From Parcubacteria group bacterium Gr01-1014_8 (GTDB lineage: Bacteria; Patescibacteriota; Minisyncoccia; Phycocordibacterales; UBA2100): a stretch of DNA of 64,000 nucleotides. This document shows, piece by piece, positions 1,621-29,986 of this stretch; the stretch's first letter is position 1, and every line of letters begins with the position of its first letter. The stretch lies in assembly GCA_007376385.1 (NCBI GenBank), contig VMGC01000003.1, positions 37,271 to 101,270 of the forward strand, read 5' to 3'. Below the pieces are notes generated by a model. That model saw nothing but the letters and a program-made list of their open reading frames with translations. It was not told the origin of the DNA and made no database searches. Made by a program: the position numbers and the translations under genes.

Positions 1621-2568
1621 CTATTCAGAAAGAACCTTCATGACACGGTCGACCACCGTGGCCCTTGTACCAAGAGCATAGTGTCCTACGCCTTCGATTA
1701 CGAAATACGGGACTTTGTTTTCTTTCAACGCAGGCCCTAGGAGATCGCTCGGATATAAATGATCCTTGTCCCCAATCCCGGCAGAGACGCGAACTCCCTT
1801 TTCGATAAGCGCCCTTACCATCGGCGCGACGTAAGTTACTGCGACCTCGTCAATTTGTGCTTCAGCACCGAGATCTCCACGCATGGTCTGTTGCATTCCG
1901 AACATCTCGTAATCTATCTCGGCGCTCGGCAAAAAAGACTTGTCGTGCTCCCCGCCTGGCATCATCCCCAACTGCCGTAATTTACTCTTGAGAAGGACCC
2001 CGAAATTAATCGATGCCGTCTTAAGACGAAGTGGGTCGTCGCCCTCAATCATTCCAGCAGGAGCATAGAGAAAGATCTTTCGAAAGAGCTCCGGTCGGAG
2101 CGTGGCGGCCAGCACTGCAGACACGGCACCCGCAGAATGGGCTATGACATCTATGGGTTGTGGTATGGCCAGGTTTTCCAACATCTCTATCGAACCAATG
2201 GCTCGTTTCACTTGAGCATCAGAAAAGACGCACTTTTCTTTTTTCCACTTCGCTAATTCCTTTTTCGCATTTTGTAATTTTTCTTCTCCTTTGAGCTTAT
2301 TCTTCGATCCGAACTGGTCAATTTCTACATTTTCTGCAGCAAAAAAAGATTTTCCCTTATTGTAAAGGCTTTCTAGAAATCCCTTATAGGTGGTGTATGA
2401 CAATCCTAGGCCGGGCAAGAAATATACTGTGGGATCGCTGGAATTTTCTGCTTGCATTAAAGTGTATCTGATTTCTTGATCGCCCACTCGAACACTATGT
2501 GTGCACTTGTGAAAGAGATCTCTGAAAGGATCTCCTAATGATTGCGGTTGTTCAAGTAGTGTGTGCAT
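1621..2568 (-). CDS. alpha/beta-hydrolase fold esterase/lipase
   Basis: GxSxG nucleophile elbow (IAHSAGAVSA). Length and hydrophobic core are typical of alpha/beta hydrolases. Confidence 0.7.
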   Translation of the reverse strand: MHTLLEQPQSLGDPFRDLFHKCTHSVRVGDQEIRYTLMQAENSSDPTVYFLPGLGLSYTTYKGFLESLYNKGKSFFAAENVEIDQFGSKNKLKGEEKLQNAKKELAKWKKEKCVFSDAQVKRAIGSIEMLENLAIPQPIDVIAHSAGAVSAVLAATLRPELFRKIFLYAPAGMIEGDDPLRLKTASINFGVLLKSKLRQLGMMPGGEHDKSFLPSAEIDYEMFGMQQTMRGDLGAEAQIDEVAVTYVAPMVRALIEKGVRVSAGIGDKDHLYPSDLLGPALKENKVPYFVIEGVGHYALGTRATVVDRVMKVLSE

Positions 2569-2725
2569 ACATTGAAATATTTGAGTCTCAATTGTACTCC
2601 ACTCGAACCTATTTTGCCGAACACTGCTGATGTCGCGTGCTCCGCGCGCGGAAATCCCATTCCCCCCTACGCGGCGCTTCGCGCCGCGCGTATTTCGGCC
2701 TCTGAAAAGCCATTGAGTTTGATTC

Positions 2726-3010
2726 TGGAGCCGATGTCCGGGATTGAACCGGAGACCTCGTTCTTCGCTTACACCTCTCCTTTAGATATTCGAGAGGGCT
2801 AGACTGTATCTTCCCCCCACTTTTTTTGAATTCTTAAAGTGGGGGACCCTTGTCAGTCGTTCGGGCGAATCAAGCAAAATGCTCGTCGCCACGGTCTGAA
2901 CCTTTCGAGGCCTTTAACCGTAATTCGGGATTCATTCAGACGTTACCGCCCGAATGGGCAGGGGTCTGCGACCCACCAAGAACGTGCTCTACCAACTGAG
3001 CTACATCGGC
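2726..3010 (-). tRNA. tRNA-Thr (anticodon GGU) interrupted by a group I intron. Exons about 3010-2975 and 2765-2726, CCA encoded.
   Basis: The 5' exon GCCGATGTAGCTCAGTTGGTAGAGCACGTTCTTGGT and the 3' exon AAGAACGAGGTCTCCGGTTCAATCCCGGACATCGGCTCCA join into a perfect cloverleaf with anticodon loop UUGGUAA. Confidence 0.7.
2766..2974 (-). ncRNA. group I self-splicing intron (about 209 nt) inserted between tRNA positions 36 and 37
   Basis: The intron follows an exon-terminal U and ends in G (omega-G). It contains R-like (GGTTCAGACCG) and S-like (AAGATACAGTCTAG) conserved group I elements and an AATCCCGAATTACGG P/Q-like segment. No ORF is inside. Confidence 0.6.
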
Positions 3011-3138
3011 TAAAACATTTGCTCCGCAAATGTTCGCCCGAACATTCGGGATTGAATGTTTTAGGGCCTATTGCGCTTATATCAGCGCAAATCGATACTA
3101 GCACGCACCCTCTAATTTCTCCATGATAAAATTGCCAT

Positions 3139-3360
3139 ATGACGGAAATAGAGAAACATCCGCTCAAATATTTGAGCGAAAATATGGGCGTCGCGCTTGG
3201 GCTCGTCTTGATATGGCGTGGCCTGTGGTACGGGCTCGACGCGATAGATATGTGGGTGTTTGGAGGTACGCACATGTTCACTGCTATTTTCGGCGTGCTG
3301 CTCGGGGTCCTTATTTTGTATCTTCCGCATCGCGATCTGAGTGCTCTTGAACGGCTGTAA
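3139..3360 (+). CDS. small hydrophobic membrane protein (hypothetical)
   Basis: 73-aa ORF with two predicted TM helices. Weak support. Confidence 0.3.
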   Translation: MTEIEKHPLKYLSENMGVALGLVLIWRGLWYGLDAIDMWVFGGTHMFTAIFGVLLGVLILYLPHRDLSALERL

Positions 3361-3396
3361 TATCTCTTTTCACGAAGTTGTCGTAAGATACTCCGA

Positions 3397-4638
3397 ATGG
3401 CTGTCGTAAATCCGTTCACGTCATATATTGAACGCCTCGCACGCGCTGCGCGCGCCTTGGGACTCTCGGAAGTCGAAAAAAAACGATTGTCAGAGCCAAA
3501 CAACATTGTAGATACTCAGATAGAACTTACGCGTGATAATGGAACAGTAGAAAGACTCCGCACCTACCGCGTACAATTCAATAATGCACGCGGGCCGTAT
3601 AAAGGCGGGATCCGCTTTCACAAGGCGGCGGACTTAGACGAAGTAAAGGCGCTGGCTGCGGCCATGGCAATAAAGTGTGCGGTAGTTGATATTCCGATGG
3701 GAGGCGCTAAAGGAGGTGTCCAATTTGACCCAAAGCAATATTCAGAAGCGGAAATAGAGCGAGTCGCACGAGCATTCATCCGAGCTATGGGTGATGCAAT
3801 CGGCGCCGACAAAGATATTCCCGCGCCAGACGTATACACCAACAGCAACATAATGGGCATCATGCTGGATGAGTTTCAAAAAATGCACGGCCGAAATGAA
3901 CCCGCCATGATAACGGGAAAGCCGCAGGGACTCGGCGGAATAGTCGGTCGTGACACAGCTACAGCACAAGGCGGTGTGTATGTGCTCGATTACTTTGTGA
4001 GTGCTCTTGGTTTCAAGAAAAAAGGTCTGCGCGTCGCAATACAAGGGTTTGGGAATGCGGGGGCTACCGCTGCAAAGATCTTGAGCGGAGATGGACACAG
4101 TATCGTCGGCATTTCCGATAGCAGCGGAGCTCTCCTATTCGAAACTGGGCTGGACATAGACAAACTCCTTCTTGAAAAAAACAAAAGCGGCGAGTTAAAA
4201 GATACGCGTGCAAGAATCGCAACAAATCAGGAGCTATTAGAAACGGACTGTGATGTTTTGATACCTGCCGCACTCGACAATCAACTGACCGTTGAAAATG
4301 CGCCTCGGGTAAAAGCAAAAATAATACTGGAATTGGCCAACGGGCCAACTACTCCGGAGGCGGACGTGATTTTCGGGCAACGAGACATTACTGTCATCCC
4401 CGATGTACTAACTAACGCGGGGGGAGTTACCGTATCCTATTTTGAATGGCTGCAAAATCGGGAAGGAAGCATCTGGTCGGAAGAAAAAGTACGCGAGCAA
4501 TTGAAAGAAATAATGACAAAAGCATCCGGCGTTCTATGGAAAAAATCAAAGGAACTGAATGTCCCCCTCCGAGATGCGGCGTTCCTTCTTGGCGTTGAAC
4601 GAATTGTGAGTGCTATGAGGACCCGGAGGGCTGTCTAA
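3397..4638 (+). CDS. gdhA: glutamate dehydrogenase (Glu/Leu/Phe/Val dehydrogenase family)
   Basis: Catalytic lysine box DIPMGGAKGGVQFDP, Rossmann motif GFGNAGATAA, 413 aa. Confidence 0.9.
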   Translation: MAVVNPFTSYIERLARAARALGLSEVEKKRLSEPNNIVDTQIELTRDNGTVERLRTYRVQFNNARGPYKGGIRFHKAADLDEVKALAAAMAIKCAVVDIPMGGAKGGVQFDPKQYSEAEIERVARAFIRAMGDAIGADKDIPAPDVYTNSNIMGIMLDEFQKMHGRNEPAMITGKPQGLGGIVGRDTATAQGGVYVLDYFVSALGFKKKGLRVAIQGFGNAGATAAKILSGDGHSIVGISDSSGALLFETGLDIDKLLLEKNKSGELKDTRARIATNQELLETDCDVLIPAALDNQLTVENAPRVKAKIILELANGPTTPEADVIFGQRDITVIPDVLTNAGGVTVSYFEWLQNREGSIWSEEKVREQLKEIMTKASGVLWKKSKELNVPLRDAAFLLGVERIVSAMRTRRAV

Positions 4639-4959: not shown

Positions 4960-5223
4960 TCACTTACGCCTCTTTTTCAAACCTTTATGACCTAAGAGAT
5001 ATTTAACGACATCGATACCCGAAACAGCGGCCCACACGCTATTTGTGAGCATGAACGGAACTACTCCTTGATCATACGCGTAGACGAAAAGACCTACCCC
5101 ACTCACAAAATTGATGAAGTCATACCAAAAACTTTCCGCCTTAAGTTTGCCGTACTCGTTGGCGATAAACGCGGAAAGAGTAAGGAGGGCAGATGCAATG
5201 CCCAGGATTTCTATGCTACTCAC
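4960..5223 (-). CDS. small integral membrane protein (hypothetical, GTG start with AAGG SD)
   Basis: 87 aa with two TM segments and a K/R-rich tail. It starts about 20 nt downstream of tRNA-Met. Confidence 0.5.
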   Translation of the reverse strand: MSSIEILGIASALLTLSAFIANEYGKLKAESFWYDFINFVSGVGLFVYAYDQGVVPFMLTNSVWAAVSGIDVVKYLLGHKGLKKRRK

Positions 5224-5242
5224 CTTAGTATTCTACTACAGG

Positions 5243-5316
5243 TGCTGGGGGACGGGATCGAACCGTCGACCTAGCGCTTATGAAACGCTCGCTCTAACCG
5301 ACTGAGCTACCCCAGC
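5243..5316 (-). tRNA. tRNA-Met elongator (anticodon CAU). Could be tRNA-Ile2 if lysidinylated.
   Basis: Acceptor GCTGGGG/CCCCAGC, anticodon loop TTCATAA, T-arm GACGG-TTCGATC-CCGTC. Confidence 0.8.
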
Positions 5317-5357
5317 GTTTCGCCAGAATAGCATTTTTGACAGGCGACTCAACTATT

Positions 5358-5373
5358 TTGTTGCGGGGGCGGG
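5358..5373. repeat. 16-bp copy of the initiator tRNA 3' end (TTGTTGCGGGGGCGGG)
   Basis: Identical to 5557-5572, the 3' end of the tRNA-fMet gene. Confidence 0.5.
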
Positions 5374-5556: not shown

Positions 5557-5629
5557 GTTGCGGGGGCGGGACTTGCACCCGCGACCTTCAGGTTATGAGC
5601 CTGACGAGCTACTACTGCTCCACCCCGCT
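5557..5629 (-). tRNA. initiator tRNA-fMet (anticodon CAU)
   Basis: Near-identical architecture to E. coli tRNAfMet (AGCGGGGTGGAGCAG...CTCATAA...CCCCCGCAAC) with an unpaired 1:72 (A:A). Confidence 0.8.
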
Positions 5630-5826: not shown

Positions 5827-6516
5827 TTATTCAATATATTTGAATTCTCTAAAAACGCGCTCATACATTCGTATCACGCGTTTTGCTTCGCGCGCATCAA
5901 GCTGAACATTTGCACTATCGTGCACAACACGATTTCTTATTTTGTGAGCTTCCCACGCGAAATCGATCGAATTGAATGCCTCAATAGGAATTTGCTTCAT
6001 TTTATCTGCCATTGTTTCCCCTTTATATCCGAGCACATCCAAGAGGTCATTCAGCATGATATCCGCTTCAAGTATGGCAAGCCGCCATTTTTCCACATCT
6101 TCTGAATTCACCTGCTCCCAAATTCGACGCCAGCGAAGCTGTGTCCTAGACAGATCTTGGCTGACAATTGGTCGAGCACCGGCAGCCATAGCTGTTCGCT
6201 CAATGCGGCGTATCTGCAGGATGCGCACAACGCAATAGATGATGCCGGCGCCAAGGACAAGTGAAAGAAATGTTGCAAGGGGAAATATCGGCCCCCAGAA
6301 ATTTAGGATCGTATCGACTGACCAGCCGGTCGTCACCTCCTGCTGTATCGACTGCACGATTGGCGTTGGCTCCGGATAGACACTGGGATCATAGGTAAAG
6401 GGCGAGGGCGGCGGTGCGTCTCCGTAGCCCGCATCATAGAACCACGCCAAGGTAACGCTCTCAAAAAAATGAACTACTGCCCAGTAGGCATCTCCAAGTG
6501 AACTTCCTCCATTCAT
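5827..6516 (-). CDS. membrane-anchored protein with a C-terminal HEPN-like helical domain (hypothetical)
   Basis: One central TM helix (FWGPIFPLATFLSLVLGAGIIYCVV). The C-terminal 110 aa carry an Rx4H motif (HKIRNRVVHDS). No family assignment is possible by eye. Confidence 0.5.
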   Translation of the reverse strand: MNGGSSLGDAYWAVVHFFESVTLAWFYDAGYGDAPPPSPFTYDPSVYPEPTPIVQSIQQEVTTGWSVDTILNFWGPIFPLATFLSLVLGAGIIYCVVRILQIRRIERTAMAAGARPIVSQDLSRTQLRWRRIWEQVNSEDVEKWRLAILEADIMLNDLLDVLGYKGETMADKMKQIPIEAFNSIDFAWEAHKIRNRVVHDSANVQLDAREAKRVIRMYERVFREFKYIE

Positions 6517-6525
6517 TCGCCTATT

Positions 6526-7941
6526 CTACCGCGTTTGTTCAATATCCTTGCCGATTGTAAACAACATCTCTTCCCCACCATGCGAACCAATGGCTTGAAA
6601 GCCTACTGGGAGCTCTTTCCCATCGCGAGTGACAGTACCCGCGGGCACAGATATCGCAGGAACGCCTGCAAGATTTACAGGTACGGTGAAAATATCTGCC
6701 GCGTACATAGCGAGAGGATCGTCCGATTTTTCTCCGATCTTAAACGCGGGAATTGGCGATGTGGGTGTTGCAACAGCATCAACCGATTCAAATGCTTTTT
6801 TAAAATCCTCACGGACGAGGGAGCGAACAGCACGAGCCTTACGATAGTACGCGTCAGCGTAACCCGATGAGAGCACAAATGTTCCTACTAAGATCCGGCG
6901 CCTGGCTTCGGGACCGAATCCACGTCCTCGCGTTTTTGTGTATACATCTCCTATTGTTTCTGCGGGTTCAGAAAGACCATAACGTATACCGTCAAAGCGC
7001 GCCAGATTCGTAGACACTTCGGCCGGATTAATAATGTAGTACACAGCAAGAGAGTATGTGAGATTCGGCAATTCGATGTCTCGGATCTCATACCCTGCTT
7101 TCCGCAAATTATTGAGCACACTCTCGAACCGCAAAGATACATCTTTTTCCACTCCACTTGAGACGAACGCGCGAGGTACCCCTATCACCTTCGGCTTTTT
7201 TACGTACACAGCTGTATCCGGAAGCGACGTACTGTCGTTAGTATCGTGCCCTCGTATCGCGTTAAACACAGCCTCAACATCGCCGACTGTTTTGCCGATG
7301 GGGCCGATCTGATCAAGAGATGACGCAGCTGCCATTAATCCGAAGCGCGACACTGCACCGTACGTTGGTTTCAAACCGACAACACCGCAAAGAGCCGCGG
7401 GCTGGCGAATTGAGCCGCCAGTGTCACTTCCGAGACCGACCAGAGCCATATTCGCCGCAACCGCCGCCGCAGGTCCTCCCGACGTCCCGCCAGCAACACG
7501 CGATGTATCGTACGGATTCTTGGTTACGCCATACGCTGAATTTTCCGTCGAGGAGCCAAGAGCAAATTCATCCATATTTGCTCGTCCCAAAAATACCGCT
7601 CCCTCATTTTTTAGCTTTGTTGTTACGGTTGCATCATACGAAGCTACATAGCTCTCCAATATCTTGGAGGCAGCGCTCGCATGTCGCCCTTTTATTAAAA
7701 TATTGTCTTTTATCGCAACAGGAATTCCAGTAAGAGATAATGCATTGCCTTCTCGTATGCGTTCGTCCGCTTCTTGTGCTTCAGCGAGCGCTGTTTCCGC
7801 CCATACTTCTAAATACGCATGAATATCAGGGTCGCGCAGGGCTATCTCTTTTAAATAGGCTTCGGTTAGTTCTCTCGCTGAAAATTTCTTGGCATCGAGT
7901 GCGCGTCTGGCCTCCATAACCGTAAGTGCTGATAGTTCCAT
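6526..7941 (-). CDS. gatA: Glu-tRNA(Gln)/Asp-tRNA(Asn) amidotransferase subunit A
   Basis: Amidase signature GGTSGGPAAAVAA, 471 aa, followed by gatC. Confidence 0.9.
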   Translation of the reverse strand: MELSALTVMEARRALDAKKFSARELTEAYLKEIALRDPDIHAYLEVWAETALAEAQEADERIREGNALSLTGIPVAIKDNILIKGRHASAASKILESYVASYDATVTTKLKNEGAVFLGRANMDEFALGSSTENSAYGVTKNPYDTSRVAGGTSGGPAAAVAANMALVGLGSDTGGSIRQPAALCGVVGLKPTYGAVSRFGLMAAASSLDQIGPIGKTVGDVEAVFNAIRGHDTNDSTSLPDTAVYVKKPKVIGVPRAFVSSGVEKDVSLRFESVLNNLRKAGYEIRDIELPNLTYSLAVYYIINPAEVSTNLARFDGIRYGLSEPAETIGDVYTKTRGRGFGPEARRRILVGTFVLSSGYADAYYRKARAVRSLVREDFKKAFESVDAVATPTSPIPAFKIGEKSDDPLAMYAADIFTVPVNLAGVPAISVPAGTVTRDGKELPVGFQAIGSHGGEEMLFTIGKDIEQTR

Positions 7942-7943
7942 AC

Positions 7944-10264
<2,321 letters not shown>

Positions 10265-29666: not shown

Positions 29667-29912
29667 AACAATCCGCCCACAAGGACACTTTGGAAACACC
29701 ACAAGAGTACTTCAGAAAATATACTCGTGCCACTCGTTATTTTCTTGGTCACACCTCAAGGGTACTTCCATTTTTCTAAGCCGGAGTACCGGCAAGAAAA
29801 ATTGGTCGCCCACGGTTTTCCAACGGGCTTCGCCCTGCCTTCCTCCACGGGAAACAAAGTGTTTCCCCGACCCCCTTCCTGTCCAAGCGGGCGTCCATTC
29901 ATTTCATTCATG

Positions 29913-29986
29913 TCCGCCCGCTTGGACTCGAACCAAGGACCCTCGAGGTATAAGCTCGATGCTCTAACCAACTGAGCTACGGGCGG
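29913..29986 (-). tRNA. tRNA-Ile (anticodon UAU, reads AUA)
   Basis: Acceptor CCGCCCG/CGGGCGG, anticodon stem ATCGA/TCGAG, loop CTTATAC (anticodon TAT), T-arm CTTGG-TTCGAGT-CCAAG. Confidence 0.65.

Follow-up and report, generated by a model that had tools for sequence, protein, structure and literature searches.

A tRNA-Thr(GGU) gene in a 64,000-nt stretch of DNA from Parcubacteria group bacterium Gr01-1014_8 (contig VMGC01000003.1; the whole stretch is called the window below) is, as we read it, cut between U36 and A37 by a compact 209-nt group I-type ribozyme intron. We put the probability of this reading, which is drawn from sequence comparison, at roughly 0.87. The host is a groundwater bacterium with a tiny genome (Parcubacteria, Patescibacteria). 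The gene, which is on the minus strand, is interrupted in the anticodon loop. Comparative analysis shows that the exons would rejoin into a normal tRNA, that the anticodon would act as the substrate strand of the P1 helix with a U·G pair, that the predicted pseudoknotted core is conserved, and that P9.0 and the terminal guanosine (omega-G) are placed as expected of such a ribozyme. The intron is a further member of an already published class, the Thr(GGU) 36/37 introns of Patescibacteria.

The exons and their boundary

When the exons are joined in silico they make 76 nt, which ARAGORN calls as tRNA-Thr(GGT), a regular cloverleaf with the 7-nt anticodon loop TTGGTAA. A sequence-only reading of the window had proposed this split gene, with its insert of ~209 nt and a spliced cloverleaf with the loop UUGGUAA, and its coordinates proved exact. 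It had also pointed to the U that ends the 5′ exon and the G that ends the insert; both are read at the locus, and both recur in every member of the intron family described below (42/42). The window holds a single match to the pattern of the tRNA 5′ half, and none of 100 shuffles contains one.

Default ARAGORN, and Rfam at its gathering threshold, made no call at the locus. In intron-aware mode, a check that the sequence-only reading had called for, ARAGORN returned tRNA-Arg(GCG) with an intron at 34/35, a published miscall for this class (Nakagawa et al., 2026; PMC13011429). We compared the two boundaries across the family, with boundaries set from the tRNA exons alone. Cutting at 36/37 gave a GGU anticodon, a U at position −1 and omega-G in 42/42 introns, whereas cutting at 34/35 split the set into 31 introns with GCG and 11 with GUG, left G at −1 throughout and ended the intron in either A or G. 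Because the 34/35 boundary mixes GCG and GUG anticodons, puts G at −1 and cuts the covarying P9.0, Thr(GGU) 36/37 is the sole consistent reading of the predicted boundary.

A family of homologous introns in metagenomes

A scan of metagenome contigs for a D-arm of tRNA-Thr type, then NNNNNN-Y-TGGT and a base other than A, gave at least 120 loci (designated here by L numbers). Parsing by exon complementarity yielded at least 45 complete genes with at least 42 distinct introns, to which all counts out of 42 refer. All 42 distinct introns among the matches listed interrupt a tRNA-Thr(GGU) at exactly the 36/37 site, with inserts of 177–264 nt and common invariant blocks. The invariant core of the family is CGAACGACUGACAA, and the 14-mer CGAACGACTGACAA, unchanged in all members, has a single occurrence in the window. 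A covariance model built from 41 homologous introns (R1) matched the 64-kb window once, at 2754-2986(-), with 204 bits (E ~4e-73); other family members scored 147–213 bits. We found no further copies in the window, where the core motif with up to three mismatches was no commoner than chance and R1 gave only this match.

The introns of L105, L088 and L070 (177, 178 and 179 nt) are the shortest among the matches listed, mainly through short P5, P6, P8 and P9 hairpins. The smallest family members (177–181 nt) are thus smaller than the Azoarcus intron of 205 nt. They are also smaller than the reported minimum of 184 nt, the shortest of 333 bacterial tRNA group I introns (PMC13011429). At the other extreme, L120:989-1276(-) carries a 264-nt intron with an insertion of ~75 nt in the P1 loop, and ~3 kb from it lies a second, weak R1 match (L120:4407-4624(-); 15.6 bits, E 0.002).

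Predicted fold and covariation

Intron positions are numbered from i1, at window position 2974. In a MAFFT alignment of the family, 88.7% of the cells in predicted pairs were paired, compared with 32–44% when the partners were slid by 1–3 columns; 34 of the 59 pairs changed on both sides, and none of 500 shuffles reached the observed covariation score. Model-guided realignment raised the paired share to 89.8%, with compensatory changes in 35 pairs, and slid controls across both alignments stayed at 32–45%. The order of the helices is that of group I: P1 with U·G, P2, P3, P4–P6, P7, P3′, P8, J8/7, P7′, P9.0, P9 and omega-G (P, paired segment; J, joining segment). Their positions are collected in Table 1.

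The three P1 pairs, G35-C17, G34-C18 and U36·G16, are each present in 42/42 introns, and in the P2 loop the G and the final A are invariant. P3 shows CUC/GAG double changes in L032, L093 and the phage relative L164, and G·U pairs in 3 sequences. P4 does not vary in the Thr set and covaries in phage relatives (ACGGU/ACCGU, UCGGU/ACCGA, UCGGG/CCCGA). Compensatory changes occur in 3 pairs of P5; in P6 they include G-C to A-U in L088, L092 and L095. P9.0 is paired in 100% of the introns, with both pairs covarying through four dinucleotide combinations (GC/GC, GU/AC, AU/AU and AC/GU). The strand order P3-P7-P3′-P8-P7′ is present, with P7 (GACUG/CAGUC) 100% complementary and without variation, so that it gives no covariation signal. 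The core segment 2847..2863 aligns to P7 in two other introns, one Azoarcus-like and one an Rfam-recognised tRNA-Phe intron; G117 of P7 is presumed to be a member of the G-binding pair.

The sequence-only reading had named R-like and S-like core elements. Its S-like element, AAGATACAGTCTAG (2812..2799), does correspond to J8/7 plus the P7 3′ strand, and this is the part that Rfam aligns. Its R-like element, GGTTCAGACCG (2902..2892), was misplaced: these bases form P5′, J5/4 and P4′, with AGACCGU pairing with ACGGU, and the real R element is CGAAC-GACUG-ACAA-GGG at 2863..2847. A first hand-drawn fold (P3 as i20-28/i107-115, P7 as i77-81/i171-176, and a ‘P7.1’ hairpin) was likewise ruled out by family comparison, in which i21-40 form the P2 hairpin, AGACCGU is P4′ and i85-111 form P6.

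Where the P1 loop of a member is UCGYA, its Y (C or U) varies together with an R (G or A) located two positions ahead of omega-G (alignment columns 17-21 vs 305-309; 2970..2967 and 2768..2766 in the window). The loop CGY is complementary to the tail RCG and shares a dinucleotide with the P9.0 partner in J7/9. Either a different pairing of the 3′ tail or just common ancestry could account for this.

Table 1. Exons, intron and predicted intron helices of the interrupted tRNA-Thr(GGU) gene, in window coordinates.
Feature	Position	Strand	Remarks
5′ exon of tRNA-Thr(GGU), tRNA positions 1-36	3010..2975	minus	reads GCCGATGTAGCTCAGTTGGTAGAGCACGTTCTTGGT; ends with anticodon GGT
Anticodon G34 G35 U36	2977, 2976, 2975	minus	end of 5′ exon
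209-nt group I-type intron (predicted), no open reading frame	2974..2766 (i1 = 2974, i209 = 2766)	minus	GGGTCGCAGACC...GGTGTAAGCG
3′ exon, tRNA positions 37-76, encoded CCA at 2728..2726	2765..2726	minus	reads AAGAACGAGGTCTCCGGTTCAATCCCGGACATCGGCTCCA
P1: G34G35U36 with guide 5′-GCC-3′ (i16-18, 2959..2957)	2957..2977	minus	U36·G16 wobble at 5′ splice site
P1 extension hairpin, i1-5/i9-13	within 2957..2977	minus	first pair covaries (GC 26, UA 10)
P2 hairpin, i19-28/i33-42, GNRA-type loop GUAA (i29-32)	2933..2956	minus	compensatory changes in 9/10 pairs
P3 5′ strand CCC (i46-48), with GGG (i126-128, 2849..2847)	2927..2929	minus	99% paired
J3/4 GAAUU (i49-53), P4 ACGGU/ACCGU (i54-58/i80-84), J4/5 UAAA, P5 (i63-66/i73-76), J5/4 CAG	2891..2926	minus	
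P6 (i85-89/i107-111), variable distal hairpin	2864..2890	minus	compensatory changes in 3/5 pairs
J6/7 CGAAC, P7 5′ strand GACUG (i117-121, 2858..2854), J7/3 ACAA, P3 3′ strand GGG	2847..2863	minus	
P8 hairpin, i129-139/i152-162	2813..2846	minus	compensatory changes in 11/11 pairs; aligned as P8 by Rfam
J8/7 AAGAUA (i163-168) and P7 3′ strand CAGUC (i169-173)	2802..2812	minus	fits RF00028 consensus gAAGAUAuAGUC; invariant in family
P9.0 5′ dinucleotide GC (i176-177, 2799..2798), then P9 hairpin (i178-183/i196-201)	2774..2799	minus	
P9.0 3′ dinucleotide GC (i207-208) and omega-G (i209, 2766)	2766..2768	minus	omega-G 42/42

Relation to canonical group I introns

The Rfam model RF00028 (Intron_gpI) aligns locally to 70 nt of the intron, at model positions 160-251, which comprise P8, J8/7, the P7 3′ strand and P9; here the S element GAAGAUACAGUCUAG aligns to the consensus gAAGAUAuAGUCua. 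The tRNA-Phe(GAA) introns of the same scan score 83–91 bits with RF00028 (L038, L108 and L072; L108, 87.7 bits). R1 in turn gave L108 18.7 bits (E 7e-6 in 22 kb), in an alignment over the whole core that spans P2 with its GNRA loop, J3/4 GAAU, P4, P5, P6, P7, P8, J8/7, P7′ and P9. The exon flanks of L108 were out of register in this alignment; therefore, its likeness to the Thr family lies in the core and not in the flanks. R1 gave the Azoarcus-like intron L078, which has the same P7 (GACUG/CAGUC), only 26 bits, compared with 173–213 bits in members of the family, too little similarity for subgroup IC3. Subgroup IA is defined by the extra helices P7.1 and P7.2 between P7 and P3′. These are absent from the family, in all members of which the joiner from P7 to P3′ is the 4-nt ACAA. 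In published work, subgroup covariance models and phylogeny placed the Thr introns on long branches in the IA clade, adjoining other Patescibacteria tRNA introns, and assigned no Patescibacteria tRNA intron to IC (PMC13011429).

The same scan returned several other kinds of interrupted tRNA gene. L078:886-1102(-) and L117:4415-4685(+) carry a second, unrelated lineage at tRNA-Thr(GGU) 36/37, which is Azoarcus-like (CAAAUUCGGGGAAACC...GGCAAUCCCGAGCCAAGCC...GUAGAGACUGG) and falls below the RF00028 gathering threshold. About 20 metagenomic tRNA-Phe(GAA)-like genes among the matches listed have introns of 224–451 nt, likely at site 33/34 (...ACU|GGUUUUCGG...AAG|GAAAAUCC): L038, L072, L106, L062, L108, L133, L121, L096, L130, L065, L075, L099, L061, L129, L045, L064, L102, L063, L025 and L017. 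A Phe(GAA) 33/34 intron is on record for Patescibacteria (PMC13011429). Five tRNA-Thr(GGU) genes (L047, L056, L044, L022 and L111) have inserts of ~477–486 nt at 36/37 that start TTAGAAATCTGCTTT... and have no terminal G; an Rfam scan of L047 and L056 matched no family. Viral and gut contigs (L027, L054, L059, L138, L139, L134, L137, L136 and L141) contain tRNAs with inserts of 46–91 nt after ...CTGGT, all ending CCATT or CAATT, and the Rfam tRNA model spans two of these genes as long tRNAs (L134:4471-4593 and L141:2504-2667). A GOLLD RNA (RF02032, 155 bits) lies at L136:5016-5531(+), in a tRNA-rich region of a 146-kb viral contig.

Relatives in phage genes and predicted excision

Beyond the tRNA-pattern scan, the core motif was found in 26 further IMG/VR contigs (L147-L172), with R1 scores of 50–130 bits. 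No tRNA surrounds these 26 viral copies, many of which follow an exon ending GGU with the guide GCC, as in the tRNA copies. In L162, three copies (6280-6469, 6746-6935 and 7569-7752) break one capsid-like gene downstream of a portal-like gene, and in L170 a capsid-like gene is also split by three copies, whose removal likewise brings the protein back into line with uninterrupted homologs. The third L162 intron is preceded by CUUGGU, the same six bases as in the window tRNA.

We predicted the L162 boundaries from the model, taking as the exon end three nucleotides, the last of them U, that pair with the 3-nt guide preceding P2, and as the intron end an omega-G that follows the P9.0 partner. The spliced protein was collinear with eight uninterrupted homologs (433–440 aa), one of which matches Pfam SU10_MCP, and junctions 2 and 3 were free of gaps. 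At junction 1, a 5′ site 6 nt further upstream was ruled out, as the homologs showed two missing residues (YA); the site corrected from the homologs, GCU| with the guide GGC and a U·G pair, obeys the P1 rule. The rule of a U at the exon end in a U·G pair with the guide thus holds in three phage copies. Such comparisons, though indirect, provide independent support for excision of the family at the positions that the model predicts.

The spliced L162 capsid protein had no tblastn match among annotated phages and no PHROGs match. At its C-terminus (L162 ~8000-8450) it diverges, as does P0121, from the other homologs after GNSDAL (alignment columns 417-449), which points to a frameshift or one more intron close to the end of the gene on the 3′ side. 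In L155, a family member missed by Rfam (4403-4611) and a canonical group I intron (5099-5361; RF00028, 78.5 bits) are ~500 nt apart.

Genomic context

The glutamate dehydrogenase (GDH) gene adjoining the locus (3397-4638) encodes a protein 100% identical to one of Parcubacteria group bacterium Gr01-1014_8, and the next named match is from Candidatus Kaiserbacteria. The gene order RF-1, tRNA-Thr(CGU), ..., GDH is kept in two relatives (GDH 71% and 67% identical). Both have an uninterrupted tRNA-Thr(GGU) between tRNA-Thr(CGU) and GDH, at the position of the split gene in the window; the sequence-only reading had called for such a comparison with intron-less relatives. The split gene therefore occupies the place of a normal tRNA-Thr(GGU), and an orthologous locus is polymorphic for presence or absence of the intron.

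A hydrophobic open reading frame (ORF) of 73 aa upstream of GDH, 3139-3360(+), shares 63% identity with an ORF that holds the same place in the gene order of L143; it is probably a true gene and matches no Pfam family. Two other ORFs, 2563-2802(+) and 2943-3506(-), had been dismissed as artefacts of the locus, which is plausible: neither has a Pfam match, and both overlap structured RNA. The minus-strand ORF 2943-3506 also runs antisense to the 73-aa gene and to the start of the GDH gene.

A scan for sigma-70 promoters and intrinsic terminators around the locus found nothing above the shuffled expectation. Two adjacent hairpins lie directly upstream of the tRNA 5′ end (3011-3060), where Rfam gives a spurious match to Pox_AX_element, and the 3′ end is closely followed by a GC-rich palindromic sequence (GCGCGCGG...CGCGGCGCTTCGCGCCGCG; window 2640-2700). 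Elsewhere in the window are a tRNA-Ile with the anticodon UAU, uncommon in bacteria (29912-29986(-)), and two tRNA(CAU) genes (5241-5316 and 5557-5629).

Proposed splicing pathway

In the precursor, G34-G35-U36 would pair with the guide 5′-GCC-3′ (2959..2957) to form P1, whose U36·G wobble would mark the 5′ splice site. The guide reads the anticodon itself, which ties the intron to the GGU isoacceptor. The rest is predicted to fold into P2 with its GNRA loop, a P4-P5-P6 stack and a pseudoknotted P3-P8/P7 core with J8/7 AAGAUA, and P9.0 and P9 would present the terminal G. By analogy with established group I chemistry, free guanosine bound at the G117-C173 pair of P7 would attack after U36, omega-G (2766) would then take the place of the guanosine at the same pair, and the 3′-OH of U36 would attack after omega-G, joining U36 to A37. 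The expected product is a mature tRNA reading ACC and ACU.

Alternative explanations

Several observations weigh against our reading. A permissive Rfam scan of 501 nt (2600-3100) gave RF00028 only 15.3 bits (E=0.2), well short of its gathering score of 50, where the sequence-only reading had expected a significant match, and the model also misses every one of the 8 other family members and of the phage relatives that were tested. The pairing of P7, which never varies, is beyond the reach of covariation; P3 is only 3 bp long, with few independent compensatory events; and no P10 longer than 1 bp can be made out. In the literature we found no splicing experiment on the window locus or on any Thr-type intron, the assays being of Asn and Asp introns (PMC13011429). 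Because the class is a known blind spot of RF00028 (PMC13011429), we do not count the miss as evidence against an intron, and a small, ORF-less group I-type intron at 36/37, as first proposed, is what family covariation, the boundary test, the intron-less orthologs and the local RF00028 core match all point to. If the RF00028 result is taken alone, with its 70 nt and E=0.2, the insert might be some other structured RNA or mobile element resembling group I only in a short motif. This we regard as scarcely credible, since the complete helix order of group I is present, the family model aligns over the whole core to RF00028-recognised introns, and published subgroup models and phylogeny put the Thr introns with subgroup IA introns of Patescibacteria (PMC13011429). 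It is just as hard to believe that ARAGORN is right and that the gene is a tRNA-Arg(GCG) with a 209-nt intron between 34 and 35. Such a gene is the exact output of the program, but it would require G rather than U at −1, a mixture of GCG and GUG on the same tRNA body, an intron ending in A or G, and a boundary through the covarying P9.0 pair; moreover, the orthologs at this position are tRNA-Thr(GGU), and the miscall is documented (PMC13011429).

Two further alternatives accept the group I ancestry of the insert. The gene might be a decaying pseudogene, inactivated by an intron that no longer splices; the locus is known here from its sequence and draws no call from default tRNA finders or Rfam. 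We consider this very improbable, as the exons are intact and fold perfectly, the core is invariant over 42 diverged copies whose helices stay paired through compensatory changes, and the locus stands where relatives have their tRNA-Thr(GGU). In addition, the tRNA counts tabulated for published intron-bearing genomes, with the column order of the table inferred, imply that the interrupted tRNA is the sole GGU isoacceptor there (PMC13011429). Somewhat less remote, but still unlikely, is an intron derived from group I and excised at the same sites that is not autonomous and needs a host or phage protein cofactor or unusual conditions. Its very compact core, 3-bp P3, 3-bp P1-guide pairing and lack of a clear P10 would fit such a dependence, as would its strong divergence from RF00028 and the lack of a splicing assay of the Thr-type class in the literature we found. 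On the other hand, the intron has no ORF, and it may supply its own tertiary contacts, to judge by the conserved GNRA loop and the A-rich joiners J4/5 and J5/4. The similarly small Azoarcus intron (205 nt) self-splices. The related Patescibacteria Asn and Asp introns also self-splice in vitro (PMC13011429). Thus, a group I-type ribozyme intron between U36 and A37 of tRNA-Thr(GGU) remains our preferred explanation.

Significance

Default finders and Rfam miss this tRNA, and ARAGORN in intron-aware mode labels it wrongly as Arg(GCG), so that the genome would seem, incorrectly, to be without a tRNA reading ACC and ACU; estimates of completeness in Patescibacteria are affected. The window gene is probably the only tRNA-Thr(GGU) of its genome; this would be another reduced-genome bacterium that relies on an RNA-catalysed step, as the fold predicts, for what is probably its sole tRNA of this kind. 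The helix map, the 42 aligned copies and the phage relatives provide the basis for a proper covariance model. The members of 177–181 nt are very small candidates for ribozyme studies and, if self-splicing, would be of some interest to ribozyme specialists.

We also propose, tentatively, that the family may be a distinct and unusually compact group I lineage outside current Rfam models, common to Patescibacteria tRNA-Thr and phage capsid genes. A 177-nt minimum, a 3-bp P3, a 4-nt J7/3 and the absence of P7.1/P7.2 would characterise it, and in most members the guide, of 3 nt, reads ...GGU. The tRNA copies might then derive from phage introns, or the reverse, via targeting of the anticodon GGU. 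We hold this wider proposal to be possible, though distinctly short of probable.

Comparison with known systems

Staphylococcus phage Twort has three group I introns in one gene. Relatives of the Thr intron also occur three to a phage structural gene (L162), but the Twort introns lie in protein-coding genes and the window copy in a tRNA; the comparison is one of arrangement. The Azoarcus intron is 205 nt long and self-splicing. It interrupts tRNA-Ile(CAU) and, like the intron in Agrobacterium tRNA-Arg(CCU), belongs to subgroup IC3 (Reinhold-Hurek and Shub, 1992). Both are small and ORF-less, with a very short P1 and a position after the third anticodon nucleotide. The window intron resembles these as a small ORF-less intron of the anticodon loop, and Azoarcus-like introns are also found at Thr(GGU) 36/37 (L078 and L117). 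However, the lineage is another one: J8/7 of the Thr family is AAGAUA and not of the Azoarcus type, and the published phylogeny places the family in IA, not IC.

Among bacterial tRNAs, tFind raised the four classical interrupted tRNAs to 21 cases (Williams, 2020; bioRxiv 10.1101/2020.01.27.920355). In Patescibacteria, the term ‘divergent group I introns’ is credited to Castelle et al. (2018, Nat Rev Microbiol) by PMC13011429. Other tRNA introns of this phylum are likewise in the anticodon loop and mostly ORF-less, and adjoin the Thr introns in the published phylogeny; they differ in tRNA and site, in being detected by RF00028, and in that splicing was assayed, with self-splicing in vitro reported for the Asn and Asp introns, the only ones assayed (PMC13011429).

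The closest comparison is with the tRNA-Thr(GGU) 36/37 introns that Nakagawa et al. (2026, mSystems) describe from Patescibacteria, in three complete genomes that include at least two of Paceibacteria (PMC13011429, Table 1). The sequence-only reading was right that Thr 36/37 lies outside the four classical cases; its suggestion of novelty fell to this report. Phylum, tRNA, anticodon, site and the absence of an ORF are the same, the length is comparable, and Parcubacteria corresponds to the class Paceibacteria. The published introns, of comparable length and predicted structure, are undetectable with RF00028 or ARAGORN and are found only by the bacterial tRNA-intron model of tFind, and ARAGORN miscalled 2 of the 3 as Arg(GCG) 34/35 (PMC13011429); the RF00028 miss and the Arg(GCG) 34/35 call are both reproduced in the window. 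The metagenome-assembled genome of Gr01-1014_8 is not among the three complete genomes, and the likeness is one of phylum, tRNA, site, length and tool behaviour. What is new relative to the published work is the covariation-backed helix map, the at least 42 metagenomic copies and the phage relatives.

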